From positions 9,550,001 through 9,614,000 of the forward strand of contig CM075988.1 of the NCBI GenBank assembly GCA_038087875.1: a stretch of 64,000 nucleotides of DNA, given 5' to 3'. Shown in pieces: positions 1,823 through 58,832 of the stretch. A program made the position numbers and the translations under genes. A model generated the notes under the pieces. The model saw only the letters and a list, made by a program, of their open reading frames with translations, was not told the DNA's origin and did no database searches. This stretch comes from Malacoraja senta (lineage: Eukaryota). How positions within the stretch are numbered: position 1 is the stretch's first letter; the number at the start of each line of letters is the position of its first letter.

Positions 1823-3077
1823 TAAGAGAGGGGATGAAGCCAGGATGGATTAAATGAATTGATTAATTACATTTAATGGCATCGGAATGACCAATCCACC
1901 ACATATAATGAGGAACCAAAAATATAAAATAGATAAGTTCATGACGGAGTTGGTCTCAGAGCCTGTGTCCTAATATGGACAGAGTTTTCCTCTGATGGAT
2001 TTGAGTGCTGAAATGTACCTGAGACTTCTGGTACCATCTCAATGTGACGTACATGGAAATAATTTGCCACATGCATTATTTACCTCACGGGCAAAACAAA
2101 ATTATTTTGAAAGCAGCAAACCTATTGATTGAAAAATACTTTCTTGCTTTTCCAGAGGCAAGGTACTCAATTCACATCAGTTCTGATGAATTCCATTAAT
2201 GTTAATGAGCTGCAAGAGTGAAGGTAGCAGCCATTTCACCGATTGTCATAGTTGCCAGAAGGGTTGCAACAGTTCAAGAAGGGCGGATCACCACCACTAT
2301 CTCAAGAGCAAAAGCTTTTCACTGTATTTCGGTACATGTGACAATAAACTAAACTCAAAATCAAAAGAGCAATAAGTTATTGTGCCAGTATTACTAGTGA
2401 TGTAATATGTCATATAATGCATGAATATATTCCTTGTTGTCAGGAAAAAAATATTTAAGCAAGCAAGCAAGTGATTTATAGCATTTCTGAACTGAATCTT
2501 TGTATCATAGTCACTGGTTGTTCTGTGAGGTTGGTTAATATAACAGAAGGTTTAATATAATAACAGGAGGAGTAATATTCAGCTTCTTTGGAAAACTGTT
2601 TTAAACATGCATGAGGACTGCTCTGTAATTATATTTTAGAGTAAAATTCATTTATTTAATCAAGATTGTTGCCATGAGTAACTTCAAATATTTTTAATAT
2701 GACACCATATGAAAGTTGTCTTTATTAGAGTTTCTTTAGTCATATTTCTTCAGTATAGGTTCAAAATGTGTAATAACGGCTTGAAGAAGATGTATCTGTA
2801 CGTCTAGGGGTAGGTCATGGTTAGTTGACGTCTCCAAATGTTCAGATCTGGACCGACAGCTGAAAACTCTGGTTCACTTTAATTACCCCCAAAATCAATA
2901 ATTTCTGACACAAAATATGGGTTCTTTAATATTCAGGGTTCCATGATATTCAAGCAGACATTTTTATCATAAGGTCCAAGCTCAGATGTGCGCTCTGTAA
3001 TGTTATCACTTGGCTCCCCACTACCATCCCTCAAACATCTCAGAACGTGGTGGAGAGAGAGGTGGGCTCCATGGAAT

Positions 3078-3378
3078 AGTTTAGTTTAGTTTAGAGATAC
3101 AGCACGTTAACAGGCCCTTCGGCCCATCGGGTCTGCGCCGACCAGCGATCCCGTACATTAACACTATCCTACACACCTTAGGGGCAATTTTTTTAATACA
3201 TGAAACCAACTCAATTAACTTGCAACCCTGAACGTCTTTGGAGTGTGGGAGGAAACCGAAGATCTCAGATAAAACCCACTCAGGTCAGGGGGAGAACATA
3301 CAAACTGCGTACAGACAAGCACCCGTAGTCAGGATCGAACCTGTGTATCTGATGCTGTAAGGCAGCAGCTCTACTGCT
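3078..3378 (-). mobile_element. tRNA-derived V-SINE (HE1-like)
   Basis: B-box GTTCGATCC on minus, central domain, CR1-like tail and (CTAAA)n end; many near-identical copies in the window. Confidence 0.85.
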
Positions 3379-3493
3379 TGGGATGTAGGAAGAAACCAGA
3401 GCAACTGTACAGTCACAGGGGAACATGCAAACTCCACGCAGGCAGGCCAGGGTTGAACCCAAGTCACTGGGGCACCTCTACTGTCCGCACCAC
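3379..3493 (-). mobile_element. 5' part of a second V-SINE
   Basis: Repeats the SINE head/central segment (gtcacaggggaacatgcaaactcc...gttgaaccc). Confidence 0.65.
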
Positions 3494-4330
3494 TACCTAC
3501 GGGCTTTGGTCACAGCTAAAATTTGGTATGGGAAGCATACCACTAAAACACATTTACTTATCACATCTGCACCGTTCTTGAGTGTGCGACCATTTTGAGG
3601 CACATATTTTTATTAAATGGGAAATATGACAGCTTACCCTTGAAGTTAAAATATTGCACTCAAACCATTCATCCAAGAATGTGTACGGTTATGCAAATTG
3701 CAGTGTAATTAAGCTCCAATACCATAGAGAATTACAATAATAACCTGATTTTTAGTGAGAACGCCTCTTAAAATGGGATTTTTGCCCATTAGTTTTCAGC
3801 AGGACTAGTTTTCAGTATTACTGAACAAAACAACCTTCATTTGCATATATATTCAAAGGAGATATATTACCTTTTCAATTGCACTTAAAATTTATGTTGA
3901 TTCCAATTTGGTTGTTCGGTAGTGTCTGAATAAATCAGTTACAGTAAACACAATTAAAACATAATCCCTCACTCACTCTTCATTTTTAGCAGGTGGGCAG
4001 AGCGGTTTTCATTCCAGCATAGTCCTCCTGGATCCTGCAGCATTGTGGTGAGGTTGCTAGGCAAGTAAGCTAGCCTGGTCTGAACCAATGATCCAAACTC
4101 ATGATTTCAAATCATAGGAAGTGGCAAGGGAATCTACATGTGAGTAATTAAATAAAACTATATTAGTAAAGTGTATGTCATTAACAGTGACCGTAGAGCT
4201 ACTGAAATTCCGTAACAATCCCCTTTGGCTTGTAGTTGACTTGATTGAATCCTCGAGCTGTATCCATGGAAACTGTCTCTTTGGTACACCAAGTCCATGC
4301 CGACCATCCATTTAATACAACTCCACACTA

Positions 4331-5205
4331 TGGCGGATGTGGAGGAGTGGGCGCGTTTGTACGGGCGCCTGCCTGCAGTCCGTCCTCTAACCCGTTTTAT
4401 TGTCTATAACTTTTATTTGGAGGTCTATTCTTTCTATGTGGGGGTGGGGGATGGGGAAACTGTTTCAACCCCAGTTCTACCTGGTCGGATATGCGGTTTT
4501 CCTCCAAATCGCATCTTCGCTCTCCCCATGCGGCCTTCCATCGTGCTGGAGTGGCGTTCCTGCCGGGGACCACAGCTTCGGCGGCACAGCGCTGGGACAC
4601 CAACAAGGAGCGGGCAATGCCTTGCCGGGTCGCCACTCCGCAGTGCTGTGACCGCCGACCACCACATCGAGCAGCGAGTCTGCGGTCTGTGGTCTGCGGT
4701 CTGCGGTCTGCGGTTTGAGGGCATCCCGCCGCGGGCGGGCGGCGCTGGATCAAAAACACCGCGGAGTCGAAGCACCAACCGGCGCGGCCTGAAGTCCCGG
4801 GCGTCGCAGTCTCCGGGGAAGTAGCGGCCGCTCCAGATACTTCAAGGCCGCTGAGGACTTTCCACCCGATGCCGGTGTTCCAGCTTCCCGGCGGGTGGGC
4901 CTACAACATCGGGCTGCCGTTGCGGCGACTGGCTGCGGAGGCCTCAAACTGGCCCCGACCTCGGGTGGACTAGGAGGAGGACTGGACATTTTGGTTCCTT
5001 TCCCTCACAGTGGAGAGTGTCGACTCTGCTGTAGGGGGGATGTTCGTGTTGAATCTCTAATAGTGTGTCGTGTCTTTTTTTTCTACCTCTTTTTTTTCCT
5101 CATTTATATGGATAATTTTCTCTGTAAAGCACTTTGGCTTCAGTGATTGAAATTGATTGAAAAGTGCTATATAAATAAATTTCCTTTACTTACTTTACTT
5201 TACTT
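4331..5205 (+). mobile_element. GC-rich non-autonomous retroelement with an L2-type 3' tail, inserted in a SINE
   Basis: 3' end gtaaagcactttgg...aaagtgctatataaataaa plus (TTAC)n resembles the L2 tail at about 31168-31233; SINE sequence resumes on both sides. Confidence 0.6.
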
Positions 5206-5486
5206 ACTAACCCCATTTTATTCTCCCCACATTCCCATCAACCCCACCCCCCTCCCCCCCCCCCAGTTTCTGCCACATGCCTAAACACTTGGACAATATA
5301 AAATAGCTAATTAAAGTACTGAGTCATAGGGTCTTTGATATGTGGTGGAAACTGGAGCAGCTTTTCTCCTGGTTCACAAAATTGCAGTTGATTCCTCGAC
5401 TGCACTGTGCACTTAATATGGAAAAACCTGCATCTGACTAATCATTGGCTCCTCCTTGCACAAGGCGGATTATAAATAATGCTGAT

Positions 5487-5686
5487 NNNNNNNNNNNNNN
5501 NNNNNNNNNNNNNNNNNNNNNNNNNNNNNNNNNNNNNNNNNNNNNNNNNNNNNNNNNNNNNNNNNNNNNNNNNNNNNNNNNNNNNNNNNNNNNNNNNNNN
5601 NNNNNNNNNNNNNNNNNNNNNNNNNNNNNNNNNNNNNNNNNNNNNNNNNNNNNNNNNNNNNNNNNNNNNNNNNNNNNNNNNNNNNN
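5487..5686. other. Assembly gap (200 N)
   Basis: Run of N. Confidence 1.
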
Positions 5687-5744
5687 GTAATTTGTACATA
5701 GGCCGAGAGAAATTGCATTTACATTGTAAGGCAAGTAACTTATT

Positions 5745-6016
5745 TAATTTACTTTATTTTAGAGCTACAGTGCGAAACAGGCCCTTCGGCCCACTGGGTC
5801 CGTGCCGACCAGCGATCCTCACACATTAACACTATCCTACACACACAAGGGACAATTTACATTTATGCTAAGCCAATTAACCTACAAACATGTACGTCTT
5901 TGGAGTGTGGGATGAAACCGAAAATCTCGGAGAAAACCCACACGGGCACGGGGAGAACGTAAAACTCCGTACAAACAGCACCCGTGGTCGGGAACGAACC
6001 CGGGTCTCTGACGCTG
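5745..6016 (-). mobile_element. V-SINE (HE1-like), 5' truncated
   Basis: Matches the other SINE copies (gaaacaggcccttcggccc...ggagtgtggg...cgaacccgggtctctg). Confidence 0.85.
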
Positions 6017-6619
6017 TTGGTCAGAACAAACAGAGATGCAAGAAACTGCCGATGCTGGAGGGATTCCACCATGAAATGTTGGAGGAAGTCAGCGGGTCAG
6101 GCAGTCCAGCCTAATCAGTCTACAAATGTTTATTCATTTACTAAATTTAAAGCTGATTAAAGAGTGTTTTGGTCATTGATTAGTCTATTGGCCAATAAAG
6201 TGCTCTGCTGTATAATAAGGATTTTTCATGCTTTTACTGAAAAATCAAATGCTAACAATGTTTTTTAGATTTAAATAAAAATAAACAAATACTATAGAAA
6301 TTGAAACTTGGGTCATATTGGCTGAATATGAGATACATGAACAATATACACATGCATTGTAAAAGAAAATCTGTAATTTAAGGAAGGTAGATACCCCTTC
6401 GCTTAGAAATATTGTGCTGTTTTCTTTTAAGATTTTAATTCAGAGGAACCATTTGATAATATGTCTACTCCTGACATACTAGGTCCTAGATGAGCTTGTC
6501 ATATTGATAACCTACTGGTAAAATCACCTAAATATACCGGAAATTATTATGTTGGGTGATGTCCATAATGTTCAGATGTTTAAATAAGAAAAAAAATCCA
6601 GTATCATGCTCGGAGTAGA

Positions 6620-7260
6620 TACAGAGCCCTTGCAATGGCACTGAGTGCCTGTAGTCCATATATCAAGAGTACACTAACTATGAGTTTTCCATTTTCATTT
6701 CTGCACCCCCATCCCCTCCCTGTGTTCTTGTTCCACTGGGACCAGTCCCCTGAGGTACTCTCTTCATTTGCACACATTTCCCATTTCCAGCCAGCCATCT
6801 TAACTAGATATCTACCTGGGTTTCCTCTCCCAAAGCCTACCATCCCCAATCCCTCCCTGATCTGGTTCCATCTGTCCATTTTCCCTGTCTTAACTGTTCC
6901 CACTGATCACTGTTCACCTCTATCCCTACCTTCCCCACCCCTCCATTCTCACTTTCACCTGCCCACTGTTTTTCTTTCCTTCTCTATTTCAATCTACCAC
7001 CCACCAGCCTCTATCTCTTAACTCCCCCACATGGCTCCATCTGCCACATTTCACCTGCTTCCATTTATCCCCTGCCAGCCCCTGTGTCACCCTCCTTTCG
7101 CCTCATTAAACTGTATATCTTCCTTCCACACTCTCAGTCTTGAATCGCAACCCGAAACGTTGTCTATCCACTTCCCTCCTCAGGTTAACCCTCTGAGTTA
7201 TACCTTCAGTTTGCCCTTTATTCCAGATTCCAGCAGCTGCAGCCTCTTATGTCTCCATCA
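6620..7260 (+). mobile_element. Degenerate Penelope-like 3' fragment
   Basis: Pyrimidine-rich body ending in the decayed pLTR motif cagtct...acccgaaacgttg...ctgagtta...ccagcagctgcag, as at 49800-49910. Confidence 0.45.
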
Positions 7261-8619
7261 AGAGTAGATGGAAGTCCAGCATAATCAATAGATGGGCCCC
7301 ATCATAACCGAGCCATAAGCTCATTCCATCACACACCTCTTGCCTCAGGTGTGATAGAGTCTGTGCTGCCCTCTGATTTGATCAGCCAGCTCAAGACCCA
7401 CAGATTACAGAGTGGAAGCAAACCATCCTTGATTGTAAGGGATTGAACAGGGAGGCTTAAGGATGTGAGATATTGTGCATTTATAATAGTTTGGTCTGAG
7501 ATAATTCATCATAAATTGCACTGAAGTTCTCAGACATGGAACAGTTAATCAAAACATTGCAATGAGGAAGGCTTAGTATGACTAAGAAAAATAAGATAAT
7601 ACTTTAAACTATCAATGCCCTAAGAAACTAACCTGTTGTTTGCATAATTATGTCAGTTGGTAAGATTTAAGGGACATTGAAATGGAAGGGGATATTTAGT
7701 TTTGATTTATACTTGAGGGGTAAAAAGAACTAATACATGATAATTATCCATGGGATGGATGCAATGTAATGGGAGCTTCAGGAGAAAGATATGTCCACAT
7801 CTGAGAATGGACTTTAGGAAAAGCATCATCTTTTGTTGTGTTGCAGTTTCTGAATCTATATTTCCATCTCAAATACACAGAATATTTGAAGTAACATCTA
7901 ATGTAACACACTGAAGATATGTTTACTTTAGCTAAATCTGCGTGATTTTGATCTTGGGTAAAGACATGAGATTGGATTGTTGACATAAAATTGGCGGCTC
8001 CCAAAATTAAAATGGTCGCCTGCATCTTCATTGAAATTGGATTTCTGGGCAATCAGCTACAAATTATTGATGGTTATTTCACCATGAGTATAGTAGTTGT
8101 ATCCTTACTCAGTCATGGCAGTGTACTGGACTCCTGGATGTGTCCATTCCAAGATGTTGAATTGAACAATTAGCCATTCATCAAACAATTGGAAAGTCAA
8201 TACACATGAGGCTCGAAGTGTCAGCACCATCAACAAACATTTGAACTGTGCCAAACCATATTGTTGCCTTTTGCGATATCAAAGGGAAGTCTTAGGTCTT
8301 GTCGAGATGGAACTTACATAGCGAGGAAGAATGAATCCACTTTGCTGTTGATATGACAGCTATCTCTGTAGTTGTAAGTTCAAAGATAAATTGTGTAAGT
8401 CTTCAATTGATTCAGAGGAATTGTTCACAGATAGTGAAGGTGGGTAAGATCTAAGCACGATAATATTCAGCATTTTAGTAGCATCCATGTGAAGTAGGTA
8501 TATCCAATCGATAGTAAGGTTATTACAGGTCTACTGAAACATCAAGTACAAACAATGTATATGATATTTTGTTAAAAAGAAAACATATGTGGAATGCATC
8601 TGGATGATACTGTAAGAAA

Positions 8620-8715
8620 GATAAAACACAAAATGCTGGAGTAACCCAGCGGGTCAGGCAGCATCTCTGGAGAAAAGGAATAGGTGATGTTTTTGGTTGA
8701 AGCCCTTCATCAGTC
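8620..8715 (-). mobile_element. Penelope pLTR-derived short repeat
   Basis: aaacacaaaatgctggagtaac...gcagcatctctggagaaaaggaataggtga...cccttcatcag; reverse complement of the 49820-49910 motif. Confidence 0.7.
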
Positions 8716-9029
8716 CCTTCTTTGGACATGTGTTCTTTCCTACACATTTTGTCTGCTCCACTGTGAAATGTCTTCAAGGTATGCCTAGTTTGAAGAAGTT
8801 CTCCTCCTCCTCCTCCTTCCTATACAAGATGTTACTGCAGTCAGTCTTGAGAACATTGGACTTAGAAGAAGAATTGCTTGATGGTGAACTGACCATTCTC
8901 CCTGAGCTTGCCTCTTACCACCTTTGAAAAGATAGTGTTGATTTGGCCAGTTAATCCCAATGGAACAACAACCAATCAATCAGTTAGCCATGCGCATGTA
9001 TAATCATTGATATTTTCCCTTAACAGTGA

Positions 9030-9330
9030 TTGATTGATTAAAAGACATAGCATAGAAACAGACCCTTTGGCTCACTGAGTCCATGTCAACTATCAATCAC
9101 AAGTTCACACTAGTTCTATTTTATTCCACTCTCGCATCTGTTCCCTACACACCAGGGGAAATTTTACAACAACTTTGATCTGTGGGAGGAAACCTGAGTA
9201 CTCAGCGGAAACCCATGCAGTCACAGGGAGAACGTACAAAATCCATACTCAGAGTATCCGAGGTCAGGATCGAACCTGGGTCTCTGGTGCTGTGAGGAAA
9301 CAGCTCTACCAACTGTGCCACTATATCACC
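9030..9330 (-). mobile_element. V-SINE
   Basis: SINE tail, central domain and B-box (ggatcgaacc on +). Confidence 0.8.
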
Positions 9331-10082
9331 ACATTGTGGGCAAATAGTGACACTCTGACAATGCACTGTCCAATTATTCTGATATGCCAGTGGTTCACTA
9401 TCTGCCTCGCTTTGTAAAATTTCCTTTGCTCCCCTCTTACTCACAGGCCACACTTGACAGTCTGCAGGAACCCCAGTTTCTGTACTCCTTTTAAAAAATT
9501 GTACAGGTCCACCACTGATTTAGCAGGACACTTGGTTCCAGGGTCTTTCTGGATTGACTGTTTTGCCAGATCAATAGAGGTCATGCCTTGGGGTGCCGAA
9601 ATACTGGCCCACAAAGTCGGCCGCGGAAGTCGGCTATGGGAACGGATATGCCGGTTCCGGCTAGTCGGGAGTTCCAGAGCCCTGGCCACAGGCGGTAAAT
9701 TCGATCCGGTGATCGGCCGTAGAAGTCGTCTATGACATCAGATCTGCTGGCTCTGTTCGGGCCACAGTTCCAGAGCCCTGGCTGCTGCGGACAAATTCGA
9801 CCCGCTGGTTGACAAGGAAGTCCCAATGAGGTTGAGATTGGCCGACTCACCCGGCCTAGGCACCACATTTTTGGGGGGACCTCAGGCGTAGGGGGGGAGG
9901 GGGGGGGGTAAGATTTTGTCCTGATTAAAGGGACGGTGGGTGAGAGGTTGCTAGACTACCAGTTGCCAGATAATTGATGGTGGACCTGTATTGCCTCTTT
10001 AATAGGAAGAATAGCTGATAGTTCATCAAATCTGCTGGTCTGGAATTACCATCTTCCCAAGCATGCTAGATATTTGGAGTTC

Positions 10083-10083
<1 letters not shown>

Positions 10084-10152
<69 letters not shown>
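10084..10152. repeat. (GTT)n microsatellite
   Basis: Perfect trinucleotide array. Confidence 0.98.
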
Positions 10153-10381
10153 CTTGTCAATTTTCTTGTTACATTTGCCATCTTTGCATAAGTAATCTGT
10201 GTTTTATGAATTGATTAAAAAAATATATTTGATTTTACTTTAAAACTGATTCAAGACTTCCGGTGGCGCTATGGAGTAAGAGAGACTCACGCCGACTAGC
10301 TCCGGGAAAAACCCGCTGAAAACGGGGGAAAAAGACGGGACCTACCTGCAGTAAACGGCACCGATTGTTTGCAGTAAGTTC

Positions 10382-10808
10382 GTGACGTCATCAGGCGCGC
10401 GACACCGGCAGCATGTCGATTCAACATACCCCCCCAAGGCGAGAAAAACCGGCAAGGCTAAAGAGGTAGGCCCAACTGAAGCCTCGGCCTCAGTTTTAAC
10501 AGCATCCCAAGAAGATATCTCAAAGAAGAAAAAGACAGATGTGGAAGAATTAAAAATCTTCCTTACACAGGAAATCTCTAATATAATGAAAGAAATTAAA
10601 AATCTTAAACTGGATCTGATTTCTTTTAAAGAGGAAATTAAAGAACAAATTAAAGAAGAAGTTACAACTTCTATACATGAAGTTCTGGAAGATTGGAAGT
10701 TAGACATGGAAGAAAATATGAAACAAAATATTGAAGAAGTAAATGATAAACTGAATTCGATGGAATCTAAATTTGATTCTAAGTTGGAGCCTATCCTCCA
10801 GACATTAA
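10382..10808 (+). pseudogene. L1 ORF1p N-terminal coiled-coil part (interrupted by a MITE)
   Basis: Lys/Glu-rich heptad sequence (EEIKEQIKEEV, MEENMKQNIEEV); frame joins 11481-12646 once the MITE is removed. Confidence 0.8.
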
Positions 10809-11477
10809 AAGGCCTGTCTCATGAGTCTGTGGTCATTGGCGGCGAAACAGGAAGAATCTACTGCTCCTGGGCCGCCATAGACCGCGCACTCGGTCAAACG
10901 CACAATTCCGGGGCCGTGCGGCGTTGTTCCCAACACCGCACGGTGCTAAAATAAAACCAACACTGTCCAAAAAACTTTTCCTACTGCACAGCCGCCGCCA
11001 GTGAGGCACGAGTGCAGCATGGCCGCCGCCACAGCCGCCGCCAGTGTGGCACGAGTGCGGCACGGCCGCCGCCACAGCCGCCGCCAGTGTGGCACGAGCG
11101 CCGTGCGTCGAACTTGCACCGCCACAGCCTCCGCCAGTGAGGCACGACCGCCGCCACAGCCGCCACCACAGCCGCCGCCAGTGAGGCACGTGTGCGGCAT
11201 GGCCGCCGCTACAGCCACCGCTACAACGCCGCGATCAGCACGGCCGCCGCCACAGCCCCGCAGATCCGAAATGACGTCATCGCAGTCGGCCCGCCCTTTT
11301 TTTTTACTTACCGCAAGCTCGTGGGATCAGCCGTACTTAAATCACTCGGCCCCCGCGCAGCACCCGTGCGGCGCTCCCGTGGCATAGGCTCGGCGCTCTC
11401 GCCGTTGCCGTGCAGTCCCCTCTACAGGCGAAGCCGCGCTTCACCGCCGATGACCGCAACACCGTGAGACAGAGCCT
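10809..11477. mobile_element. PIF/Harbinger MITE A with internal GC-rich tandem repeats of up to about 42 bp
   Basis: Termini AAGGCCTGTCTCAT / GTGAGACAGAGCCT; flanks TAA (10806-10808) and TTA (11478-11480). Confidence 0.85.
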
Positions 11478-11480
11478 TTA

Positions 11481-12646
11481 ATCAACACCAACAGGTTGTG
11501 ACGGAATTAGAGGAAATTGCTGAGACAAGCACCGAAACTACAAATAAACTTATTGCTGAGAATAAACGCCTATCAAAGTTATTACATCAAATAACCGAAA
11601 AATGTATTGACTTGGAGGGACGACAGAGACGCCAGAATTTAAGATTCGTGGGCATCCAGGAAGGCAGAGAGGGGAATCGTGACCCCCGTGAATTTGCTGC
11701 AGATCTATTGAAAAAAGTCTTGAATTTGGATCAAGCACCACTACTTGCCCGAGCGCACAGAGTATCGAGACGTCGCCCGGATAGAGGTTTTATACAATGG
11801 AAAAATTATGGAATTAAAAAGATTGGACATCTTTATAGGGAAGGCATCTTTCTGTCATTTCAAGAGTTACAACAGAATTATGGACTACACTCAAATAATT
11901 TTTTCAGATATCTACAAATTAGAGATTATGTTAAATCTAATACACAAGTATATAGGACTAGGGAACCAGAAATTCTTGATGAATGTTTGAATAAGCATCC
12001 TAACACTGAAAAATTAATAGCTTATATCTATAACATCCTCTTAAACAATGAGGTACCACCGATGGAACTATATAGACACACATGGAAACATGAGTTAGGT
12101 CACTCTATAACGAAAGACATTTGGGACGAAAGTTTACAACATATACATCAATGCTCGTTAAATGCCAGACATGCTTTAATACAATTTAAAGTCTTACACA
12201 GATTACATTATTCCAAAATAAAACTAAATAGAATCTTCCCACATATTTCTCCTATCTGTGATAAATGCCTACATCTAGAGGCCAATTTAACACATACTTT
12301 TGCAAATTGTATAAAAATCAAAAATTTCTGGATTGATATTTTTGAAATAATTTCTGAAGTTGTTAATACTAACTTGGATTCAGACTCAAAATTAATAATA
12401 CTTGGGATATCAGAACAAAGTTTAATACTCACAACAAGCCAAAGAAACTTCCTCGACTACAGTATAATAACTGGGAAAAAATTAATATTAAAATTTTGGA
12501 AAGGTCCTATAACCCCCACAATTAAAATGTGGATTGTGGAAATGTCGGAGACCCTACATCTAGAAAGAATTAGACTTGTCTTAATGGACAAACAAGAACT
12601 TTTTGTTAAAATATGGGCTCCATTCGTTAACTATTTGAAGGGATAG
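11481..12646 (+). pseudogene. L1 ORF1p central part fused in frame to the ORF2p C-terminal (CCHC zinc-knuckle) region
   Basis: DLEGRQRRQNLRFVGIQEG and ARAHRV (ORF1) followed directly by FIQWKNYGIK...CDKCLHLEANLTHTFANC...ETLHLERIR, colinear with ORF 52897-54015. Confidence 0.85.
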
Positions 12647-13584
12647 ATGGGCCCAGCACGAAAACCCAACTGAAGCTTGAACTCAGGATTAGATGTAAAA
12701 TTATATTTCATAACCTACGAACTTATCTCCAATGACGTATTATAAGTAACTCATTCCACCTCTTTTTTTTTTCTCGATATTTGTAATGCTTTTTTCTTTC
12801 TACCTCTCTTTTTCTATCTATATAAAAAAAAACACTAGAAGCAGAATTAATCGACAATTGACAATTTTAATAATGTATGATTGATGTATATGAAAAGTTT
12901 TTTTTCTATTATAATATGTTACTATACTTTATAATATGTTTGCTTCTAATAAAAAATATTAATCAAAACTGATTCAAGCTAAATTAAATAAAATTATTCC
13001 TTGCAGAGTCAAGCACCATTCTAGTTTTCATCTTTGTATAGTGAAAGAACAGCCTCCTATAAAAGCTGAGGGTTGATAGGTTAATTGTCTACTGTAATTT
13101 GTCCTTAATGTTTGCCAATGTCTTCTAATATCAGCTTATCCTTCAATCAGAACAACAACAGCCCGAGTCACAGAGTCACAAAGTCATACACAGGGAAATA
13201 GGCCCTTTAGTCAATAGGGAATGAACCAACCATTATACTCCCAGGTGAGTGGTGGAAAGAGGGGAACTGATGGGAATGTGGGAAGAGTAAAATAATGTGG
13301 AATAAGTGCAGGTAAGGGCTCCAGGCTTGTATCATTCTCTCTTGGCTGAAGGGCTTGTTTCCATTCCTGATGACATTGTGACTCTGTAACTCTGACTAAT
13401 GTCTTTCTGATTGAAGGATCATCTAATATTAGAAGGCAGGAGATAAGTGAAAGGAAACAAAATACCAGAGCTATTTTATCAGTGACCTACCCTGAAGCTG
13501 GAATAATGCACCCAAGGACCGCTTAGCTATTCTCGGGCAAGCTATTTTGAAATCATTGGGCACACGCTTTGATGCCACAGAGTC

Positions 13585-13770
13585 ATAGTCATACAGCATG
13601 GAAACAGTCCCTTCAGCCCAACTTGCCCATGAAGACCAAGATACCCCATCTGCACTAGCCCCACCTACCCACATTTTGCCCATACCCCTCTAAACCTTTC
13701 CAATCTGTATACTTGTCCAAATGTCTTTTAAATGTTGTTATAGTAGCTACCTCACCAACCTCTCTGGTAT
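13585..13770 (-). mobile_element. CR1 3' fragment
   Basis: Reverse complement of the CR1 tail (catggaaacagtcccttcagccc...tgtccaaatgtcttttaaatgttg). Confidence 0.75.
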
Positions 13771-13856
13771 TTTTTTATATTTTTGCTGGAAATGCTCAGA
13801 CACTTATGGCAAAGGAGTAAAACAGGGATACTATTTCAAATCGATGAACTTTCATT

Positions 13857-14188
13857 TTTAGTTTAGAGATACTGCACGGAAACTGGCCCTTCTGCCCACC
13901 GAGGCTGCACCGACCAGTCATCCACGCAAATTGACACTATCCTACACACACTAGGGACAATATACAGTTATACCAAGCCAATAAACCCACAAATCTGTAC
14001 GTCTTTGGAGTGTGGGAGGAAACCGAAGATCTCGGAGAAAACCCACGCCGTCACGGAGAGAAGGTACAATCTTTGTACAGACAGCACCCATAGTCAGGAT
14101 CGAACCCGGGTCTATGCATTGTATGCACTGTAAGGCAGCAACTCTAGCGCTGCACCATGATGCCGCCCTTTGCGCCACCGTGCCGCCC
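13857..14188 (-). mobile_element. Full-length V-SINE with a duplicated 5' head
   Basis: Complete SINE; the head ends in gccgccc twice (14150-14188). Confidence 0.85.
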
Positions 14189-24174: not shown

Positions 24175-24460
24175 ATTTTGACTTTAGGCCTTAGACTTTA
24201 TACCACATGGAAACAGGCCCTTTGACCCACTGTGTCCATGCTGGCCAGCAATAGCCCCATACACTAGCACCATCCTACACACTAGGGACAGTTTAGATTT
24301 TTTTTACCAAAGTCAATTAACCTACAAACGTTTATGTCGTTGCAGTGTGGGAGGAAAACGGAGCATCCGGAGAAAACCCCGGCGATCACAGGGAGAACGT
24401 GCAAACTCCGTACAGATAGCACCTGTGGTTAGGATCAAACCCAGGTCTATGGCGCTGTAA
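24175..24460 (-). mobile_element. V-SINE, head cut off at the MITE D insertion
   Basis: SINE sequence ends at ggcgctgTAA. Confidence 0.82.
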
Positions 24461-24833
24461 AGCCCCTGTCCCACTTAGGAGGCCTAAACAGCAACCTCTG
24501 GTGACCTTGCCTGCCACCCAAGGTTTCCATGAGGTCAACGGAGGTTTTGGTCACTCTCCCTAATGGTCGAAAGTGGTTTCCGCGTGGTCGAGGCTTCATC
24601 TACGTTGCTGCTATTTTTTCATCATGATTAAAACCTCGACTAAAAATAGGTTGCTGTTTTAAAAATCGATAATTTTTTAGTCGCAGGTCTAGTCAAAGCT
24701 GTATGGTCATGAGTAGTCGCCCAAAGAGTCGTACCTTTTTCTGGTCACTGCTGGATTTTCACCATCTTGAACATTTTCGGCGATCTGCTGCGACTATGAC
24801 GGGTGCCGGCAGTCACCCAAAAAAATCGCCGAA
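24461..24833. mobile_element. PIF/Harbinger MITE D (right TIR interrupted)
   Basis: TAA then AGCCCCTGTCCCACTTAGG; ends aaaaatcgccgaa where MITE E begins. Confidence 0.75.
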
Positions 24834-27290: not shown

Positions 27291-28641
27291 ATTTTGATAA
27301 TCTTTCAATGTTGTGGCTACTATCTCTCTGGAACACCAGAGGGAAAACTGATCAGCTGTTCAAATCTTCTGTAATGATGAAAACTGTGTATATGCGTTGA
27401 ATTGGTATGAACTAGGGCAGCAGTCGAGATACAATTTTTTTTTCTATTCAACTAATGAAACCTTAACGTTAAAGAACAAGAAGCAGTAAAGTCTGCGAGA
27501 ACACAATACTTTTCCTACATTTTTTCCAAAAACGCCCATAACTCCAAGGTCCTTTTTAGTACCATTACCTCTATCATATGTCCTGCCCCCAGGACCAGCT
27601 TAGCTGGGTCTCCTGCTAAGTGCAAAGAATTTACTACATTTTTCACCAGCAAAGTTAAGAACATCAGAACGAATATTTCCCCTCCCATCCGTGACCTAGC
27701 TGTCTCATTGTTCTGTTCTTCAAAATTAGACTGTTTCCAACCCGTTACTCTACCCTCCATTGTAAAGCTGGTCACCACTATGAAACCTACTACCTGCCCC
27801 CTTGACGTTGTCCCCTCTGCCCTTCTGAAGGATGTCATTGCAATAGCCGGTCCCAGCATTCTCGCCATCATCAACAGTTCTCTGGCCACTGGCACTGTTC
27901 CTACCTGCTTCAAGCAGGTCCAGCCCCTCATGAAAAAACCTAACCTAGACCCCACCTTGCCTAGCAACTACAGACCTATTTCCAAACTGCCTTTCCTTTC
28001 AAAGGTCCTTGAAAAGGTAATTTTAAATCAACTTATGCCTTACCTACACCAGAATATCATCCTGGAAACTTTCCAATCAGGTTTCAGGGTCCACCATAGC
28101 CCAGAGTCTGCCTTGCTGAAGGTACATAACAACCTACTTCTCACCATTGACTCCGGTGACTGTGCAATCCTGCTCCTTCTCGACCTCAGCGCAGCATTTG
28201 ATACAGTCGACCACACCATCCTAATTGACCGTCTCCGGTATGGGGTTGGTATTGATGGCACTGCCCTGAGCTGGTTCGTCTCCTACCTCAAAGATAGGAG
28301 TTTCTCTACAAACATAGGCAACTCTTTCTCCTCCCCAGCTAGCCTTTGCTGCGGGGCTCCACAAGGCTCCATCCTAGGCCCCATTCTCTTCTCCCTGTAT
28401 ATGCTCCCCTTAGGCCAAGTCATTCAGAGGCACGGCATTTCCTTCCACAGCTATGCAGACGATACCCAACTCTATCCCCCCCTGAAGCAATCAAATCTAC
28501 TCAGCCTTATGCACTACCTCGAGGATATAAAGTGTTGGATGGCCCAGAACTTCCTCCAACTAAATGAGAGTAAGTATGAGGTCATCCTACTCGCCCCCTC
28601 GGACTCCATCAAAATGATAGCTGGCATCCTTGGAAGCCTTA

Positions 28642-30443
28642 AAGCCCTGTCTCACTGTGCGAGTTGACCCACGAGTGACCACGAGTGAAAGACTCGTGGT
28701 TGCGTACGATACTACAAGTTTATGATCCAGAGTTTAACCGAGTTCCCACGGGTATGTCTAAGTTTCCCGTTTACTTCTCATTTCTGCGATGTTCCAAGTT
28801 CGTCTCCCGAGTGTACCAAGTTCCTCTCCCGTTAATCTTGAGGCAACAATGTATATCGAAGTGTTGAAAAATCATCACATGTTAAAAAAATGATGTCATG
28901 CCAGCCAAAGAACGTAGAGACTATTGTGTTTGCTGCATGTGTTCTGCACAACCTGATCCGTATCAGAGGTGCAGCTTCAGGATCAGCAACAGCCATGCAG
29001 GACGGTGACTTAGTGGACAGTCAAACAGGGAGAATAACACTAGGTGCGTGGAGGAGTGGTACAAACGACGAGACTTTGGTGCCACTGCAGTGTTTTCGAA
29101 GTAACACGGGGACCAACAGTGCAAAAGAGCAGAGAGACCATCTCTGCTCCTACTATAATTCAGAATTGGGCAGTGTGCCGTGGCAGGACAGCTTAGTTTG
29201 AGCGGCTGCCGACCACAGGTACATCACTGCACGAGGAGAGCCCACATGCAGAAAAATCCAGTTAATTTCATGTTTAGTTTAATCCTGCTGACTTTTCTTT
29301 GTTTAACTTTAAGTGTGGATTTTATTTTTTATTGTGGTGTAAAAGTAATTTCATTGCATCTGTCTTTCCTTTAAAACGTGGTTATCATGCATCTGCTTAT
29401 CTGATTGTAGATCTCAAAACTTGTCATTTAGCGCATTGCATTGTATCTTTTATTGCCTGAATTTAGACTTGTGCATTTCTCAGCTGAATTAGTATATAGT
29501 GGAAATACTTTTATTTGGGCTTCATTTGTTGATTTTCATGTATGAGAAGCCCTTTTTCAGACCACTGTGTTGTTTGCTGTGGTGCTCCTTTTCTCAATAT
29601 GTGCAAAAAAGTATTTTTTATATTGAACAAGATGAATAAAGACTTTGTTTCACATTCACCGTGCTGTTTGTCTTATTTTCTGATCTACTGAGAGGGGACA
29701 ATTTTAAACATTTAAAAATCACAGCATATGAGGCAGCTGAGTCCTTAAATCTCACAAATGATTGTGAGAATCAAGATGTGAATATATTTTGCCTTCCTCT
29801 ATTTTGTGTTTTATGATGAAAGGAATATTACATTCAAGTCATGAGACTTTGTAGTGATATTAATATGAAGACTTCCAGACATCAATTTGATCTTGATAGC
29901 AAAGAACTCTCTTTTATTGTGCAATGAAGTAAACAAACAGTGAGAATCAAACGGATCAGCTAAAAGCTTTTCAACACAACACAACACAACACAAATTTAT
30001 ATATAAACTTCAAGCAATTTTTTATTTTCAACCCACTCTGTCTCCTTATCAATAACTTGCTTAACTTTGTTAAGCAGAATTTGTCTTTAAGAAGTCTAAG
30101 TAACTGATATTTCTATCCCTGATTATTGTTTCTAAAAAGAGTTCCCACGGTAGAATCACGAGTCACAAAGTTAAACGCACGGGCCACTACGTTCTTACGA
30201 GTTTAAATGTTTCAAATTTTAACCTCAAGAGTACATTTTACTCGTGGAAAAGTTCAAACATGTTTGAACTTTTTCAAGAGTTAACAAGTTTCACGGGTAC
30301 CTCCCGTTAGCGCCAAGAGTCGCTAAGTTTCGTCCACGAGTTCCGACGTTCCCGCTACGTTAGTTGTACGTGATTACCACGATTTAAATTTGTTTTAAAC
30401 TCGGGGTACCTCGTGGGTCAACTCGCACAGTGAGACAGGGGTT
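28642..30443 (+). mobile_element. PIF/Harbinger deletion derivative F
   Basis: About 33-bp TIR AAGCCCTGTCTCACTGTGCGAGTTGACCCACGAG; TSD TTA at 28639-28641 and 30444-30446. Confidence 0.93.
28890..29201 (+). pseudogene. Harbinger (DDE_Tnp_4/HARBI1-like) transposase C-terminal relic
   Basis: IVFAACVLHNL motif and ...RDHLCSYY...GSVPWQ, typical of Harbinger transposase C-termini. Confidence 0.8.
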
Positions 30444-34789: not shown

Positions 34790-34948
<159 letters not shown>

Positions 34949-35029
34949 TTGTCGTTGTCTTATTATCGTCCCTGGTGTCCTGCTGGTATTTATCTGCCAT
35001 CTTATTAATTAAAAATAATCATTGTTCAT

Positions 35030-42603: not shown

Positions 42604-42759
42604 GAAATAAGAGTTAATTTTTCTGTTGCACTGCCATCTCATTTCTACTTGAAAAACATCCTCAAAATCTACTCCTTTATGAGAATTAAAATGTATAATC
42701 ATATAATTTAATATCGCGGTTAGGAATATTCAAATAGATTTTATTATTACCAGTGGATT

Positions 42760-43470
<711 letters not shown>

Positions 43471-43712
43471 ATTTTACCTTGGGTTAGAAAGAGTTGAGTG
43501 TACACTGCAATTCTGCTATGCATCAACAGTACAAAGCATTTCATTTTTATGTGAAGGCTGACAATTTTATATTGTGTCAACATTAATAGGGTACAGTGTA
43601 TATTCTAATGTTGTGGATTAATGGGATTAAAAAACATATTGAAGTGGTGCATAAGGATTGGGGCAGCACACTGCATATTGTGGTTACTGTGAATAAACTA
43701 ATGGGATGCAAT

Positions 43713-45562
43713 TCAAAGTAAATCCAAAGGGTTTCTACAGCTATATTAATAGCAAAAGGATAACGAGGGATAAAATTGGTCCATTAGAGAGTCAGAGTGG
43801 ACAGGTATCTGCAGAGCCAAAAGAGATGGGGGAGATATTGAACAATTTCTTTTCTTCGGTATTCACCAAGGAGAAGGATATTGAATTATGTGAGGTAAGG
43901 GAAACAAGTAGAGTAGCTATGGAAACTATGAGATTCAAAGAAGAGGAAGTACTGACACTTTTGAGAAATATAAAAGTGGATAAGTCTCCAGGTCCGGACA
44001 GGATATTCCCTAGGACATTGAGGGAAGTTAGTGTAGAAATAGCAGGGACTATGACAGAAATATTTCAAATGTCATTGGAAACGGCAATAGTGCCGGAGGA
44101 TTGGCGTATTGCGCATGTTGTTCCATTGTTTAAAAAGGGGTCTGAGAGTAAACCTAGCAATTATAGACCTGTTAGTTTGACAGCAGTGGTGGGCAAATTA
44201 ATGGAAAGGATACTTAGAGATAATATATATAAGCATCTGGATAAACAGGGGCTGATTAGGAATAGTCAACATGGATTTGTGCCTGGAAGGTCATGTTTGA
44301 CTAATCTTCTTGAATTTTTTTAAGAGGTTACTCGGGAAATTGATGAGGGTAAAGCCATGGATGTTGTATATATGGACTTCAGTAAGGCCTTTGACAAGGT
44401 TCCTCACGGAAGATTGGTTAAGAAGGTTCATTGGTTGGGTATTAATGGTGGAGTAGCAAGATGGATTCAACAGTGGCTGAATGGGAGATGCCAGAGAGTA
44501 ATGGTGGATGGTTGTTTGTCAGGTTGGAGGCCAGTGACTAGTGGGGTGCCACAGGGATCTGTGTTGGGTCCACTGTTGTTTGTCATGTACATCAATGATC
44601 TGGATGATGGTGTGGTAAATTGGATTAGTAAGTATGCAGATGATACTAAGATAGGTGGGGCTGTGGATAATGAAGTAGATTTTCAAAGTCTACAGAGAGA
44701 TTTATGCCGGTTGGAAGAGTGGGCTGAAAGATGGCAGATGGAGTTTAATGCTGATAAGTGTGAGGTGCTACATCTTGGCAGGACAAATCAAAATAGGACG
44801 TACATGGTAAATGGTAGGGAATTGAAGAATGCAGGTGAACAGAGGGATCTTGGAATAACTGTGCACAGTTCCCTGAAAGTGGAATCTCATGTAGATAGGG
44901 TGGTAAAGAAAGCTTTTGGTGTGCTGGCTTTTACAAATCAGAGCATTGAGTATAGAAGTTGGGATGTAATGTTAAAATTGTACAAGGCATTGGTGAGGCC
45001 AATTCTGGAGTTTGGTGTACAATTTTGGTCGCCTAATTATAGGAAGGATGTCAACAAAATAGAGAGAGTACAGAGGAGATTTACTAGAATGTTGCCTGGG
45101 TTTCAACAACTAAGTTACAGAGAAAGGTTGAACAAGTTAGGGCTTTATTCTTTGGAGTGCAGAAGGTTAAGAGGGGACTTGATAGAGGTCTTTAAAATGA
45201 TGAGAGGGATAGACAGAGTTGACGTGGATAAGCTTTTCCCATTGAGAGTAGGGAAGATTCAAACAAGGGGACATGACTTGAGAATTAAGGGACAGAAGTT
45301 TAGGGGTAACATGAGGGGGAACTTCTTTACTCAGAGAGTGGTGGCTGTGTGGAATGAACTTCCAGTGAAGGTGGAGGAGGCAGGTTCGTTTTTATCATTT
45401 AAAAATAAATTGGATAGTTATATGGACGGGAAAGGAATGGAGGGTTATGGTCTGAGCGCAGGTATATGGGACTAGGGGAGAATACGTGTTCGGCACGGAC
45501 TAGAAGGGTCGAGATGGCCTGTTTCCGTGCTGTAATTGTTACATGGTTATATGGTTATATAT
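43713..45562 (+). mobile_element. 5'-truncated CR1 LINE, relatively young; ORF2 RT region with one in-frame stop (44321-44323)
   Basis: NYRPVSLT, YMDFSKAFDKVPH, GVPQGSVLGP, YADDTKIGG; (ATGGTTAT)n tail; possible TSD ATGCAAT at 43706-43712 and 45563-45569. Confidence 0.95.
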
Positions 45563-51102: not shown

Positions 51103-52086
51103 TTAAATATTTGCAGCTTGTAATATTTTCTCTGCAAATAAATCAGGTTTCATCAATGGCTTATTATAAAAAGTTCTGAATGTCGTTTCCCTCGACCATC
51201 CTGCTGTATTCAGAATATGGTCAACCGGTACGTCCATTCTGTCGGCCGTTGATGTAGATGCTGCCCTAGTGGAATGAGATTTAAATGTATTAGTATCTAT
51301 TCCGGCAGCCTTCAGTACCTGTTTGAGCCATCTTGAAATGGTTTGGCTCGTTACCCGGCCATGAGGTTTCTTGTGGCTGACCCATAAGGCTTTTTCACTC
51401 CCTCTGATATTGTGGGTTGTGTCTATATAATGTTGTAGATGGGTCACGACACACAACTGTGGCTCTTGTGGGTAGGCCCGGAATACCACCAGTGGATTAG
51501 CTGTTCCTGGCCTGCTTTGCTTCACCAGACCCTGTATGATGAATGTGATCTGATCTGGGGTGGTCACCATGTTATCCAGCCTTAACCTGTGTAGTGACTG
51601 AACCCTCTGAGCGGATACGAGTGCCATCAACATGAACGTCTTTAGTGTAGATTGCTCGAGGCTGAGGGATCTGGCAGGTGGCCATTCCCTGAGGTATGTC
51701 AGGACCACACTGATATCCCAAATATGGGTATACCTGGGTTTAGGGGGCTTGATATTATAAATGCCCTTCATCAGTTTTACTACCAGTGGATGGGATCCCA
51801 TTGCCTGTTGTCCTGCTGGTTTGAGATAAGCAGAAAGAGCACTCCGTGCTGTGTTGATGGCACTGTAACTAATCCCTTCATCATGGTGTAGATGGGCCAG
51901 GAACTCCAGTACGTTGGTGGCTGTGGCTGTTGCATACGTTGTCCCTGTTTCCTGGCAGTACTTCTCCCATTTTCTTATGCTGATTAAGTACTGCCTCTTG
52001 GTGGATGTTCGAAGGGATGCCGACATGGTGGTGATGGTACGTTTGGACAATCCCAGTTCCAGGTAAGGTCTATTCAAAACCTGCAA
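51103..52086 (-). CDS. DIRS tyrosine recombinase
   Basis: Open 327-aa frame with AQRVQSL (R), HSTRAAS (HxxR), AGWS and TFRTFYNK (Y). Confidence 0.92.
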   Translation of the reverse strand: MQVLNRPYLELGLSKRTITTMSASLRTSTKRQYLISIRKWEKYCQETGTTYATATATNVLEFLAHLHHDEGISYSAINTARSALSAYLKPAGQQAMGSHPLVVKLMKGIYNIKPPKPRYTHIWDISVVLTYLREWPPARSLSLEQSTLKTFMLMALVSAQRVQSLHRLRLDNMVTTPDQITFIIQGLVKQSRPGTANPLVVFRAYPQEPQLCVVTHLQHYIDTTHNIRGSEKALWVSHKKPHGRVTSQTISRWLKQVLKAAGIDTNTFKSHSTRAASTSTADRMDVPVDHILNTAGWSRETTFRTFYNKPLMKPDLFAEKILQAANI

Positions 52087-52493
52087 CCCAGGAGTTTAAT
52101 TTTCTCATGACATGGGTGGCTTATGCCTGATACTGGGTGAGTTAATAATCCTGGATCACTGGGAAAGACCATTGGTGACTCAACCACCATGTCATGTAGA
52201 ACCGGGAACCATGGCTGTGTAGGCCAGTCAGGCACCATCAAAATTCCAGAAGCAGAGTCCATCTGTATTTTGCGAAGTACCCGACTGATGAGGCAGAAGG
52301 GAGGGAAAGCATAGAAGAAGAACTTTCCCCAATCCAGCGTGAAGGCATCTAGCGCTGCTGCCTCTGGGTCTGGTTCCCAAGCGACATACATAGGTAACTG
52401 GTGATTTAGTCGTGATGCAAATAAATCGATATCTAGCGTTCCATACTGCTTAATAACTTTAGCAAATACTTTAGGGTTTAACATCCATTCGAT
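52074..52493 (-). pseudogene. DIRS pol C-terminal Dam-like N6-adenine methyltransferase domain (cut off by L1)
   Basis: DIDLFASRLNHQL, FYAFPPF and VPDWPTQPWFP motifs typical of the DIRS1 MT domain. Confidence 0.82.
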
Positions 52494-52896
52494 GTTATCA
52501 TTGAATTTTTTATTTTTTTTAATTTTTATTTATTAGAAGTACATTACATTACAACCACATACATTAGTACTCGTCACTTATGTCTTCTTACAATTAATGT
52601 ACTCCATTTATTTTTTACACTAGAAAAGGAAAAGATTGAAAGAAAGAAGAAGGTGAAGGAAAAAGTGAGAGTGTAGAAAATGTGACAACAAAAATGGACG
52701 AAGACCCTATAAGAGCAAAATTAAAAACAAAAGAAAAAGAGTTAAGAAATAGACCCTAGAAAAGAAAGAGAAAGAGAAAGAGGAAAAAGAGAGAAACAAA
52801 TATTTTTATGAGCATTACGTAAATGGGACATACCAACTCTTCAACTATCATCCCCCCTTACCTGACCTCAATTTTTTTTTAAAGTACCTTTGCACC

Positions 52897-55800: not shown

Positions 55801-56677
55801 GTAGGCGATATATCTGGAGTATCATTTATTTGAAAAAGACCTCCATTTGTTCTTTTAAATATATACTCGCTTGTGGATCTTTTAGAATTTGAGAATTAAA
55901 TCTCCAAAACGATTTATTCTTAAACATTCCTTCCAGTTTTAAAAAGAAAGTTAGTGGAGAATGGTCTGAAATCGAATTTGTGTGGTATATTGCGTTAGAT
56001 GTTTGGGGGATTAATTTTGTATCCAGCAGGAAGTAGTCTATACGTGAGTATGTCTTATGTACCATTGAATAAAACGAGTATTCCCTGCCAGTTGGATTAA
56101 CAATTCTCCAAACATCTGCTATATTAGTATTGTTTATATAGGTAATGAGAAGTTCCCCGGTTTTCGATTTCATATTCCCTCTCTGTTTTTGGCTTGATTT
56201 ATCTAAGTACGGATCTAAAACACAGTTAAAGTCTCCTCCTATTATAACATTTTGATAGTTAGACTCTGCAATTATGTTGAAAATTTTATTGAAAAAGTGG
56301 GGGTTATCAAAGTTAGGGGCATATATATTTACCAAGGTAAGTGGAGTATCATGGATTTCTCCATTAACTATTAGGTATCTCCCTTCTATATCTGTTATGA
56401 TATTCTTTGCTTTAAATGGTATACCTTTTCTTATAATGATTGACGTGCCTCTAGATTTTGAAGTGAATGAAGAATGGTATGTTTGACCTATCCATTTCGC
56501 CCTCAACCTAACTTGATCCTGAGATTTTAAGTGTGTTTCTTGTAGGAAGGTAATGTCGGAATTGTACAGTTTCAGCTGAGCTAGTATCTTACCCCTTTTA
56601 ATAGGTTCGTTAATACCTCTTATATTCCAACTACAAAATGAGATTCCTCCTAGGTTCTTTTGTTTGGTGTCATGCAT
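52897..56677 (-). pseudogene. L1 ORF2p (APE endonuclease, RT, CCHC), disrupted
   Basis: SWNIRG, LQETH, GGDFN, SDHSP; PGPDG, LDAEKAFD; YADD mutated to YAVD (54557-54568); several frameshifts and a stop. Confidence 0.92.
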
Positions 56678-57511
56678 TTTGAATAATTATAGTACCTTTA
56701 AATCTTGTGGTGCATCCATATCCCAGGTCTTTGGGTATTGGGGGAACTTTTGAGTTTTTAAGTTTTGTTGGTATGTCCATTTTACGCTTATCACTAAACA
56801 CAAAACACAAACATGTGATTTTATGTGATAAAAAAAAAACTAAAAAAGTGAAAATACAGTGTCTGATATAGTCGGCACTGTAGCGAGTGTCCCACCTGTA
56901 GGTGGGAAAAAACCTTGTTTTGACTTCCATTGCGTTGTTACACAAATAGCTCCGCTCTCTTAGTTAATCATAACATATTAAAATATTAAAACGGGGCCTC
57001 ACATTCAGATATATAATACAATTTTACCCTGTATATTTCATTATAACATATATATATATCGGAATTTTAACTACTAATTATTAAACCGATACTTTTGACT
57101 TCAATAAGAATCAACTGTTTGTTGAAGGGGTTAACGAGACGTGCCCCTGGGCCTAAGCCAGGTGCTCGTTTCTCCTCCCCTCCTCCCACTTATAGATAAG
57201 GTTTCAATTTATTAAAAATTCATATTAGTATTTTAGTTCGTTATTTTTTATTTTTGTTTTTGTTAGTATTCTAATCTAACATGCATAACTTATTAAGTTG
57301 TTGATAGGATAAGTTCTTACAATTGGTTTTAATATTATAATCTAATAAGCAAGTAAATGCTTCTGGTATATACCATTCCCGTCTGTTCAGCTGTTTACTC
57401 GTTTTGAACAGAAAGTGTCCTTGATTCAACATTCCAAAGATAACAGTCTAACTATCCCCAGACAAAGCATTGCTTAGAATGGTTCCGTTCTGCCAAACCC
57501 CCCTTAGATTT

Positions 57512-58639: not shown

Positions 58640-58832
58640 TTAAAGGGCTTTAAACCACCGTTTAAAACATCGCGCTTAATGATGACGTCATCAGCGCGAC
58701 GACCAGGAGCTCCGGTAAGGTTTTTAAAAACAATCCCGATTTCTGGACCCGTTTTACACGATAAATCGTGAAATTTTTCGGGAGAGGAGCTAGGTGCACG
58801 TCTGTTAGTCCAACATGGCGCCACCGGAAGTC

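Follow-up and report, generated by a model that had tools for sequence, protein, structure and literature searches.

Organization of the internally deleted L1 element

The stretch of Malacoraja senta DNA analysed here (64,000 nucleotides of contig CM075988.1, assembly GCA_038087875.1, positions 9,550,001 to 9,614,000 of the forward strand; hereafter the window, to which all coordinates refer) harbors on its forward strand an L1 retrotransposon that retains both its termini and lacks its middle part. The element is flanked by a target-site duplication (TSD), AAAACTGATTCAAG, of 14 bp, located at 10242-10255 and 12965-12978 and occurring exactly twice in the window. The final G of this duplication might be the first base of the element itself, since the other L1 of the window likewise begins GACTTCCGG; the length of 13-14 bp given in the preliminary description is thus accurate. 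The 5' end and the 5' untranslated region (UTR) span 10255-10412, with the first 15 nt identical to those of the other window L1, and the 3'UTR (12647-12964) contains an AATAAA signal at 12948 and ends in a short A-rich tail, as had been proposed. The TSD, the TT|AAAA insertion site at the left duplication and the A-rich tail are all marks of target-primed reverse transcription. A (GTT)n microsatellite (10074-10164) is located 90 nt upstream of the element.

The coding part is composed of three blocks of L1 sequence, interrupted by a miniature inverted-repeat transposable element (MITE) of 668 bp at 10810-11477. The first block (10436-10809) corresponds to the N-terminal region of ORF1 and to the first part of its coiled coil, sharing 71% identity over 140 aa with P0179, one of the related proteins retrieved, in whose AlphaFold model a helix covers residues 49-187. 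The second block (11482-11779) contains the remaining coiled coil and the first half of the RNA recognition motif (RRM), up to residue 237 of P0179; here the identity is 77% to P0179 and 73% to P0023. The third block (11780-12646) encodes an ORF2 tail of 288 aa, formed by the second half of the wrist and by the C-terminal domain with its CxxC...H...C motif and ending at a TAG codon (12644-12646), and 216 of its 250 aligned residues are identical to P0001. The second and third blocks are joined in a single open reading frame (ORF; 11468-12646) of 392 aa devoid of internal stops, in which the similarity to ORF1 proteins extends to about residues 103-105 and that to ORF2 proteins begins at residue 105, which agrees with the uninterrupted passage from ORF1 to ORF2 noticed previously at about 11780. 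No Pfam family was assigned to this ORF, and the endonuclease and the reverse transcriptase required by an autonomous L1 are missing. The element nevertheless belongs to the L1 clade by sequence origin: the profile built on the relatives of its ORF1 part matches human ORF1p (2YKP, E 8.9e-23), so that its coiled coil and RRM are homologous to those of L1 ORF1p, and that of its ORF2 part matches residues 846-1249 of human ORF2p (8SXT, E 5.6e-25).

Once the MITE is subtracted, the L1 sequence amounts to 2037 nt, in keeping with the earlier estimate of about 2 kb. The extent of the missing region can be evaluated by comparison with the other L1, a full-length copy on the minus strand (52494-58847; 5' end at 58832; 15-bp TSD at 58833-58847 and 52494-52508) with an intact ORF1 of 375 aa, a spacer of 835 nt and an ORF2 split over five frames. 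In this copy, 4088 nt separate the points homologous to the two sides of the junction, a figure that bears out the loss of roughly 4 kb suggested before. Since the two ORF2 sequences are only 46% identical, the full-length copy is not the parent of the element.

The junction itself (11777-11782) is in frame and is best placed at CCG|GAT, with the break between 11779 and 11780, because the loop following the RAHR motif has a constant length in all of the 11 ORF1 relatives listed, none of which carries D at the seventh position, while D occupies the junction position in seven of the eight ORF2 relatives listed. Depending on the codons of the parent, the microhomology at the junction would be of 0-4 nt and, judging from the residues of the relatives on both sides, no GT-AG pair would border the breakpoints in either register. 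A 4-nt GGAT microhomology, obtained by laying ORF1 RPD over ORF2 MD, was considered and discarded, as CCG|GAT is favored by the loop register and the residue preceding the D is L, not M, in P0186.

The ORF1 cut falls at residue 237 of P0179, between the strands 226-231 and 246-250 of its AlphaFold model (predicted local distance difference test, pLDDT, 84); the last 109 residues of that model would therefore be lost, that is, the strands 246-250 and 274-280, the helix 253-265 and the whole C-terminal domain. On the profile, the cut is located at about position 197, inside the stretch 150-238 matched by chain 2W7A, which we take to be the isolated RRM. By a hand count on the profile alignment, the ORF2 cut lies near residue 970 of human ORF2p, whose wrist domain is placed at 863-1061 (PMC10830420). 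Both breakpoints thus lie inside domains, in the middle of the RRM and in the middle of the wrist, so that domain ends are respected on neither side, as might instead be expected for a fusion under selection. The 288 ORF2 residues that remain would still fold, according to a structure model (pLDDT 85).

Reading frame, MITE insertion and age of the copy

In the preliminary description, the element had been presented as an L1 with an intact 5' end that encodes a chimera of ORF1p and of the C-terminal part of ORF2p, with 530 codons free of stops once the MITE is excluded. The arithmetic is correct: joining 10382-10808 to 11481-12646 gives 1593 nt, TAG included, without any internal stop. Neither the intact 5' end nor the encoded protein is borne out, as the 530-codon frame opens at a GTG (10382) located within the 5'UTR. 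The native start is the ATG at 10413, which reads MSIQHTPP (compare MSTQHTPPP in P0179, MSMQHT in P0023 and MFPQHSPP in P0032) and is closed after 18 codons by a TAG at 10467-10469. This ATG is in a frame different from that of the 530 codons, the shift occurring within or close to a stretch of seven C (C7, 10429-10435); in agreement with this, a tblastn search with P0179 aligns the N-terminus of this protein to frame +3 and its remaining part to frame +2. The shift may be either a true lesion or a homopolymer or assembly error.

On this point, the comparison covered contigs of four sequencing runs (X1-X4) belonging to three organisms (A-C), for which the values reported are summed contig depths and not copy numbers. 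Two records of organism A have four extra letters with respect to the window at 10376-10498, and one record of organism C has one extra letter within 10248-10456, possibly the insertion listed at 10367 in the 5'UTR. Among the 12 insertions listed, out of 67 detected in the contigs, none is located at the C7 run.

The MITE introduces a stop into the 5' frame at 10952-10954, and the 3' ORF has its first ATG at 12062, downstream of the junction. The possible products of the locus are thus a peptide of 18 aa, an ORF1/MITE piece of 122 aa and an ORF2 tail of 194 aa, and the chimera is not among them. In the sequenced copy the chimera is untranslatable from any ATG; since the ATG at 10413 is out of frame and the MITE adds a second stop, no chimeric protein is expected from this locus. 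The open frame running from the native start codon that would characterize a functional chimeric gene is limited here to 18 codons, followed by the MITE stop at 10952. These lesions might be restricted to this copy.

The MITE has AGGC...GCCT ends and internal repeats of 40-55 nt, and is flanked by TAAA on the left (10806-10809) and TTAA on the right (11478-11481), although a 3-bp duplication with one mismatch fits as well. The contigs of all four runs skip exactly 672 nt at this point, the empty site being TAAA; the 530-codon join proposed earlier is therefore the frame of the family itself. The same skip rules out a TTAA duplication, which would imply an insert of 673 nt and a broken frame. 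Elements of the T2-MITE/Kolobok type are described as having a TTAA target and RR ends, with an AGGRR motif in T2-MITE (PMC6004289). The AGGC on both sides fits the RR termini of Kolobok and not AGGRR, and on the basis of its termini the MITE resembles T2-MITE/Kolobok elements devoid of that motif. Its depth is about 1e5-1e6 in organism A versus 0-6 in organisms B and C; as it is abundant in the former and essentially absent from the latter two, its insertion appears to postdate the split from their lineages. The MITE family seems to have undergone a recent lineage-specific burst in organism A, the flanks of organisms B and C being just about 5-6% different. A second MITE-like terminus with a similar pattern is located at 24458.

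The significance of a long frame without stops depends on the age of the copy. In a neutral simulation, the probability of finding no stop in 512 codons was 0.72 at 0.5% divergence, 0.50 at 1%, 0.25 at 2%, 0.13 at 3%, 0.03 at 5% and 0.005 at 8%, decreasing to 0.40 at 1% and 0.12 at 2% when an assumed rate of insertions and deletions was added; moreover, one random join in three is in frame. The absence of stops is thus unremarkable in a young copy, and most likely reflects youth and not selection. The ratio of observed to expected CpG (1.25 in the 5'UTR and 1.02 in the 3' part of ORF1) is a sign of youth. The flanks of the element are 4.8-5.8% different from organisms B and C. A contig of organism C (run X4, record 31, covering 12967-13606) stops fitting the window at 12967, within the right TSD, leaving 209 letters unplaced, and its end probably represents the empty site; if organism C has such a site, the private drift of the copy is at most about 3%.

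As for the substitutions, which were listed for 40 of 669 rows, four of the seven coding differences from the contigs change the residue, and so do three of the four sites at which at least 92% of the depth of organism A disagrees with the window. One of the changes private to this copy is an I to F replacement in the conserved NLRI strand. This proportion is what drift predicts, and the very small and pre-selected sample makes it a weak indication.

Relatives of the element and origin of the deletion

The searches for related proteins covered 29 of 1852 candidates, the best 150 of 675, 8 of 34 and 2 of 3. Of the 185 proteins screened, 110 match the ORF1 half only, 73 the ORF2 half only and two both halves; an additional (186th) protein is an ordinary ORF2. 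The junction of the element is carried by none of the 186. Among the matches listed, the closest ORF1 relatives (P0183, P0031, P0179) and ORF2 relatives (P0001, P0181, P0186) extend through the regions that the element has lost. In particular, the batoid proteins P0179/P0183 (ORF1) and P0001/P0186 (ORF2), with 71-91% identity to the element where the closest of them can be aligned, are continuous where the element is deleted. The closest named ORF1 relatives are from Leucoraja erinacea (XP_055497228.1) and Rhinoraja longicauda (XP_078269195.1). The two proteins that match both halves are P0098, described below, and P0131 from Menidia (696 aa); the latter was set aside as a similar fusion, since it contains pieces of endonuclease between the two halves and has the appearance of a gene model pieced together over an L1.

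Further copies of the junction were sought at the nucleotide level as well. The only match within the window is the element itself; the exact 25-nt junction has no occurrence in the JGI metagenomes, where host DNA is probably absent; and scans guided by protein sequence in contigs from metagenomes, prokaryotes and viruses, collections unlikely to contain the host, gave 116, 50 and 13 pattern matches, respectively, none of which was confirmed. No bridging contig, joint or loose end at 11779/11780 was found among the contig records listed, which are a small share of the total. In all four runs the summed depth rises 3- to 9-fold across the junction, from 22,571 at 11741 to 109,916 at 11840 in X1, from 2,455 to 22,838 in X2, from 27,015 to 87,129 in X3 and from 2,744 to 13,388 in X4. 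Such a step is expected if, in most copies with the ORF2 tail, something other than ORF1 precedes it at this point, and would fit an L1 family dominated by 5'-truncated copies, even though it is a weak indication.

On the whole, it is probable that the element is a one-off, internally deleted and dead L1 copy, whose two ORFs were joined in frame by chance. The parent is most likely an abundant L1 family of skates and rays, and the copy is most likely young. Between the two origins offered in the preliminary description, a chance in-frame deletion is thus the better supported one. A subfamily that produces a functional chimera is not positively supported, because the start codon is disconnected from the frame, the cuts fall inside domains, three of the four listed sites change the residue and the junction is present in none of the related proteins retrieved.

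The events can be arranged in the following sequence. An L1 was inserted by target-primed reverse transcription at the TT|AAAA site, generating the 13-14-bp duplication. About 4 kb was lost, probably in a single event, either during the insertion itself, the reverse transcriptase having jumped on the RNA from its 3' 1.2 kb to its 5' part, or through end-joining repair at a later time, two routes that are indistinguishable here; with a chance of one in three, the frame was preserved. A MITE, probably of the TTAA type, entered ORF1, and a frameshift, visible in the assembly and possibly a homopolymer error, separated the ATG from ORF1. Both template jumping and end-joining repair have been discussed for non-LTR elements (PMC6740152, PMC2861651), and internal deletions in single non-LTR copies have been described (PMC2861651).

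Such deletions are reported for Hebe of Adineta vaga (PMC2861651), which resembles the element in having intact ends, a TSD, an internal loss and an inactive copy. The deletions described for Hebe are of 12-200 bp with a microhomology of 5-14 bp, versus about 4 kb and 0-4 nt here, and in the present case two ORFs have become fused in frame by coincidence. Half-L1 (HAL1) elements are likewise L1 derivatives with a 5' end and ORF1 sequence but without reverse transcriptase. They are described as encoding ORF1p only and as having arisen as mammalian families (PMC5753468), whereas the element has an ORF1 without half of the RRM and without the C-terminal domain, plus 288 codons of ORF2; judging from this coding content, which is not that of a complete ORF1p alone, it is not a HAL1. 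Spliced integrated retrotransposed elements (SpIREs; PMC5860796) are also L1 insertions with a TSD and an internal gap. Their gaps are described as bordered by a splice donor and acceptor and located in the 5'UTR or between the 5'UTR and ORF1, while that of the element runs from ORF1 to ORF2, seemingly without GT-AG; the element is thus probably not a SpIRE. The internal deletions dealt with in a further study (10.1101/2024.08.27.596794) are short and accompany 5' inversions, a situation inapplicable to the element.

Some observations weigh against a one-off dead copy. The combination of an intact 5' end and a 3' end is the layout of a mobilisable short internally deleted element (SIDE). CpG is depleted in two regions, with ratios of 0.44 for the first part of ORF1 and 0.35 for ORF2. 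The high-depth contigs are about 6-9% different from the copy; since a wholly private drift of this size makes a stop-free frame unlikely, the preferred interpretation requires that these contigs represent other subfamilies. In a polarised comparison with P0001, 12 changes fall on the branch of the copy and 9 on that of P0001, with 13 left unpolarised, so that amino-acid changes are not clearly enriched on the former. The pattern of contig depth may be compatible with a minor deleted subfamily. Lastly, a fusion of ORF1 with an ORF2 tail does exist in P0098, a 232-aa protein on a single Logan contig of 1512 nt, a member of a distantly related L1 family (37% and 32% identity). Its ORF1 breakpoint is at about residue 291 of P0179, versus 237 here, and its ORF2 part begins about 7 codons before that of the element; this proximity may be due to chance or, with one case at hand, may hint at a preferred region of breakage.

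The alternative to be weighed first, which we regard as unlikely, is that the element belongs to a small non-autonomous family, i.e., an L1-derived SIDE, whose deleted source kept the promoter and the 3' end and was copied in trans by full-length L1s, the in-frame join being a mere passenger. SIDEs (R2 SIDE, PMC3414825; Persaeus and Zenon, PMC6740152) likewise consist of the 5' and 3' ends of a long interspersed element (LINE) joined by an internal deletion and devoid of reverse transcriptase, and this structure, with its 5' end, 3'UTR, polyadenylation signal and TSD, is found here; the R2 and CR1 cases are precedents. The depth of the ORF1 half in organism A (about 10,000, versus 26-37 for single-copy sequence, i.e., hundreds-fold) leaves room for such copies, and the distance of 6-9% from the high-depth contigs would fit a separate sub-lineage. 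Nevertheless, SIDEs are multi-copy and mobilised in trans, whereas the element is known from one locus and retains 1.6 kb of coding sequence; no second junction was found in the window, among the 186 proteins or in the metagenomes, where host DNA is probably absent, and the depth step recurs in every run. Moreover, SIDEs are described as rare (PMC6740152), and the spliced copies of human L1 as dead ends (PMC5860796).

It is very unlikely that the element derives from a multi-copy family selected for a protein in which ORF1 (residues 1-237) is fused to half of the ORF2 wrist and the C-terminal domain, trimerising with ORF1p and binding L1 RNA as a cis-acting helper or a dominant-negative factor, this copy having subsequently decayed. 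The in-frame join with its 530 codons, the entire coiled coil, the ability of the ORF2 tail to fold alone, as predicted by the model, and the similar fusion P0098 might speak in favor of it, and in human cells the N-terminus plus coiled coil are reported to be sufficient for suppressing L1 in trans (PMC5605252). Yet any truncated ORF1 would give this trans effect, making the ORF2 tail unnecessary, and suppression needs the N-terminus, which is untranslatable in this copy. The intradomain cuts, the start codon out of frame, the MITE stop and the private I to F change in the NLRI strand all argue against it, and P0098 is one sequence on one short contig, with a different ORF1 breakpoint. A broader version of the idea has an equally small chance of being correct: that a non-autonomous L1 family of skates and rays, mobilised in trans, has a source expressing the coiled coil joined to half of the ORF2 wrist and the zinc knuckle, that comparable fusions arise repeatedly at about the same point of ORF2 in other L1 families of fish, as P0098 would exemplify, and that the protein either promotes the entry of its RNA into L1 particles or poisons the latter. 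Finally, an assembly artefact mis-joining two L1 copies can hardly be maintained, as the junction, although bridged by no contig among those listed, has matching 14-bp TSDs on either side, both its flanks agree with the contigs of organism A with 0 differences, and no long homology that might mislead an assembler is present at the join.

Genomic surroundings and significance of the element

The window as a whole is vertebrate DNA rich in repeats. The full-length minus-strand L1 is nested in a tyrosine-recombinase retrotransposon (51103-61604, minus strand), presumably DIRS-like, which contains an ORF of 421 aa, a reverse transcriptase (PF00078), an interrupted ORF and an integrase (PF00589). 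Further reverse-transcriptase fragments (PF00078) at 27459-28667 and 43697-45475 look, in our opinion, like LINEs of the L2/CR1 group. Several dispersed families resembling short interspersed elements, with 5-12 copies each, are found window-wide (e.g., 3077-3378, 5744-6037, 13849-14128 and 24200-24478), along with other simple tandem arrays (about 1094-1750, about 42706-43300 and 34792-34949) and an assembly gap of 200 N (5487-5686).

A phrase search for an in-frame fusion of LINE-1 ORF1 and ORF2 by deletion found no open-access full text, which is not proof of absence from print. Read in the most likely way, the element is one more dead L1 copy, offering a clean example of an internal deletion followed by a MITE insertion and possibly useful as a lineage marker. 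If the junction were multi-copy, it would represent an L1-derived SIDE in a vertebrate, whereas SIDEs have been reported in insects and a protozoan (PMC3414825, PMC6740152). If selection acted on the fused frame as well, the element would be a natural parasite or suppressor of L1 assembled from ORF1 and ORF2 parts, and would provide a test of the ORF2 C-terminal domain without reverse transcriptase.

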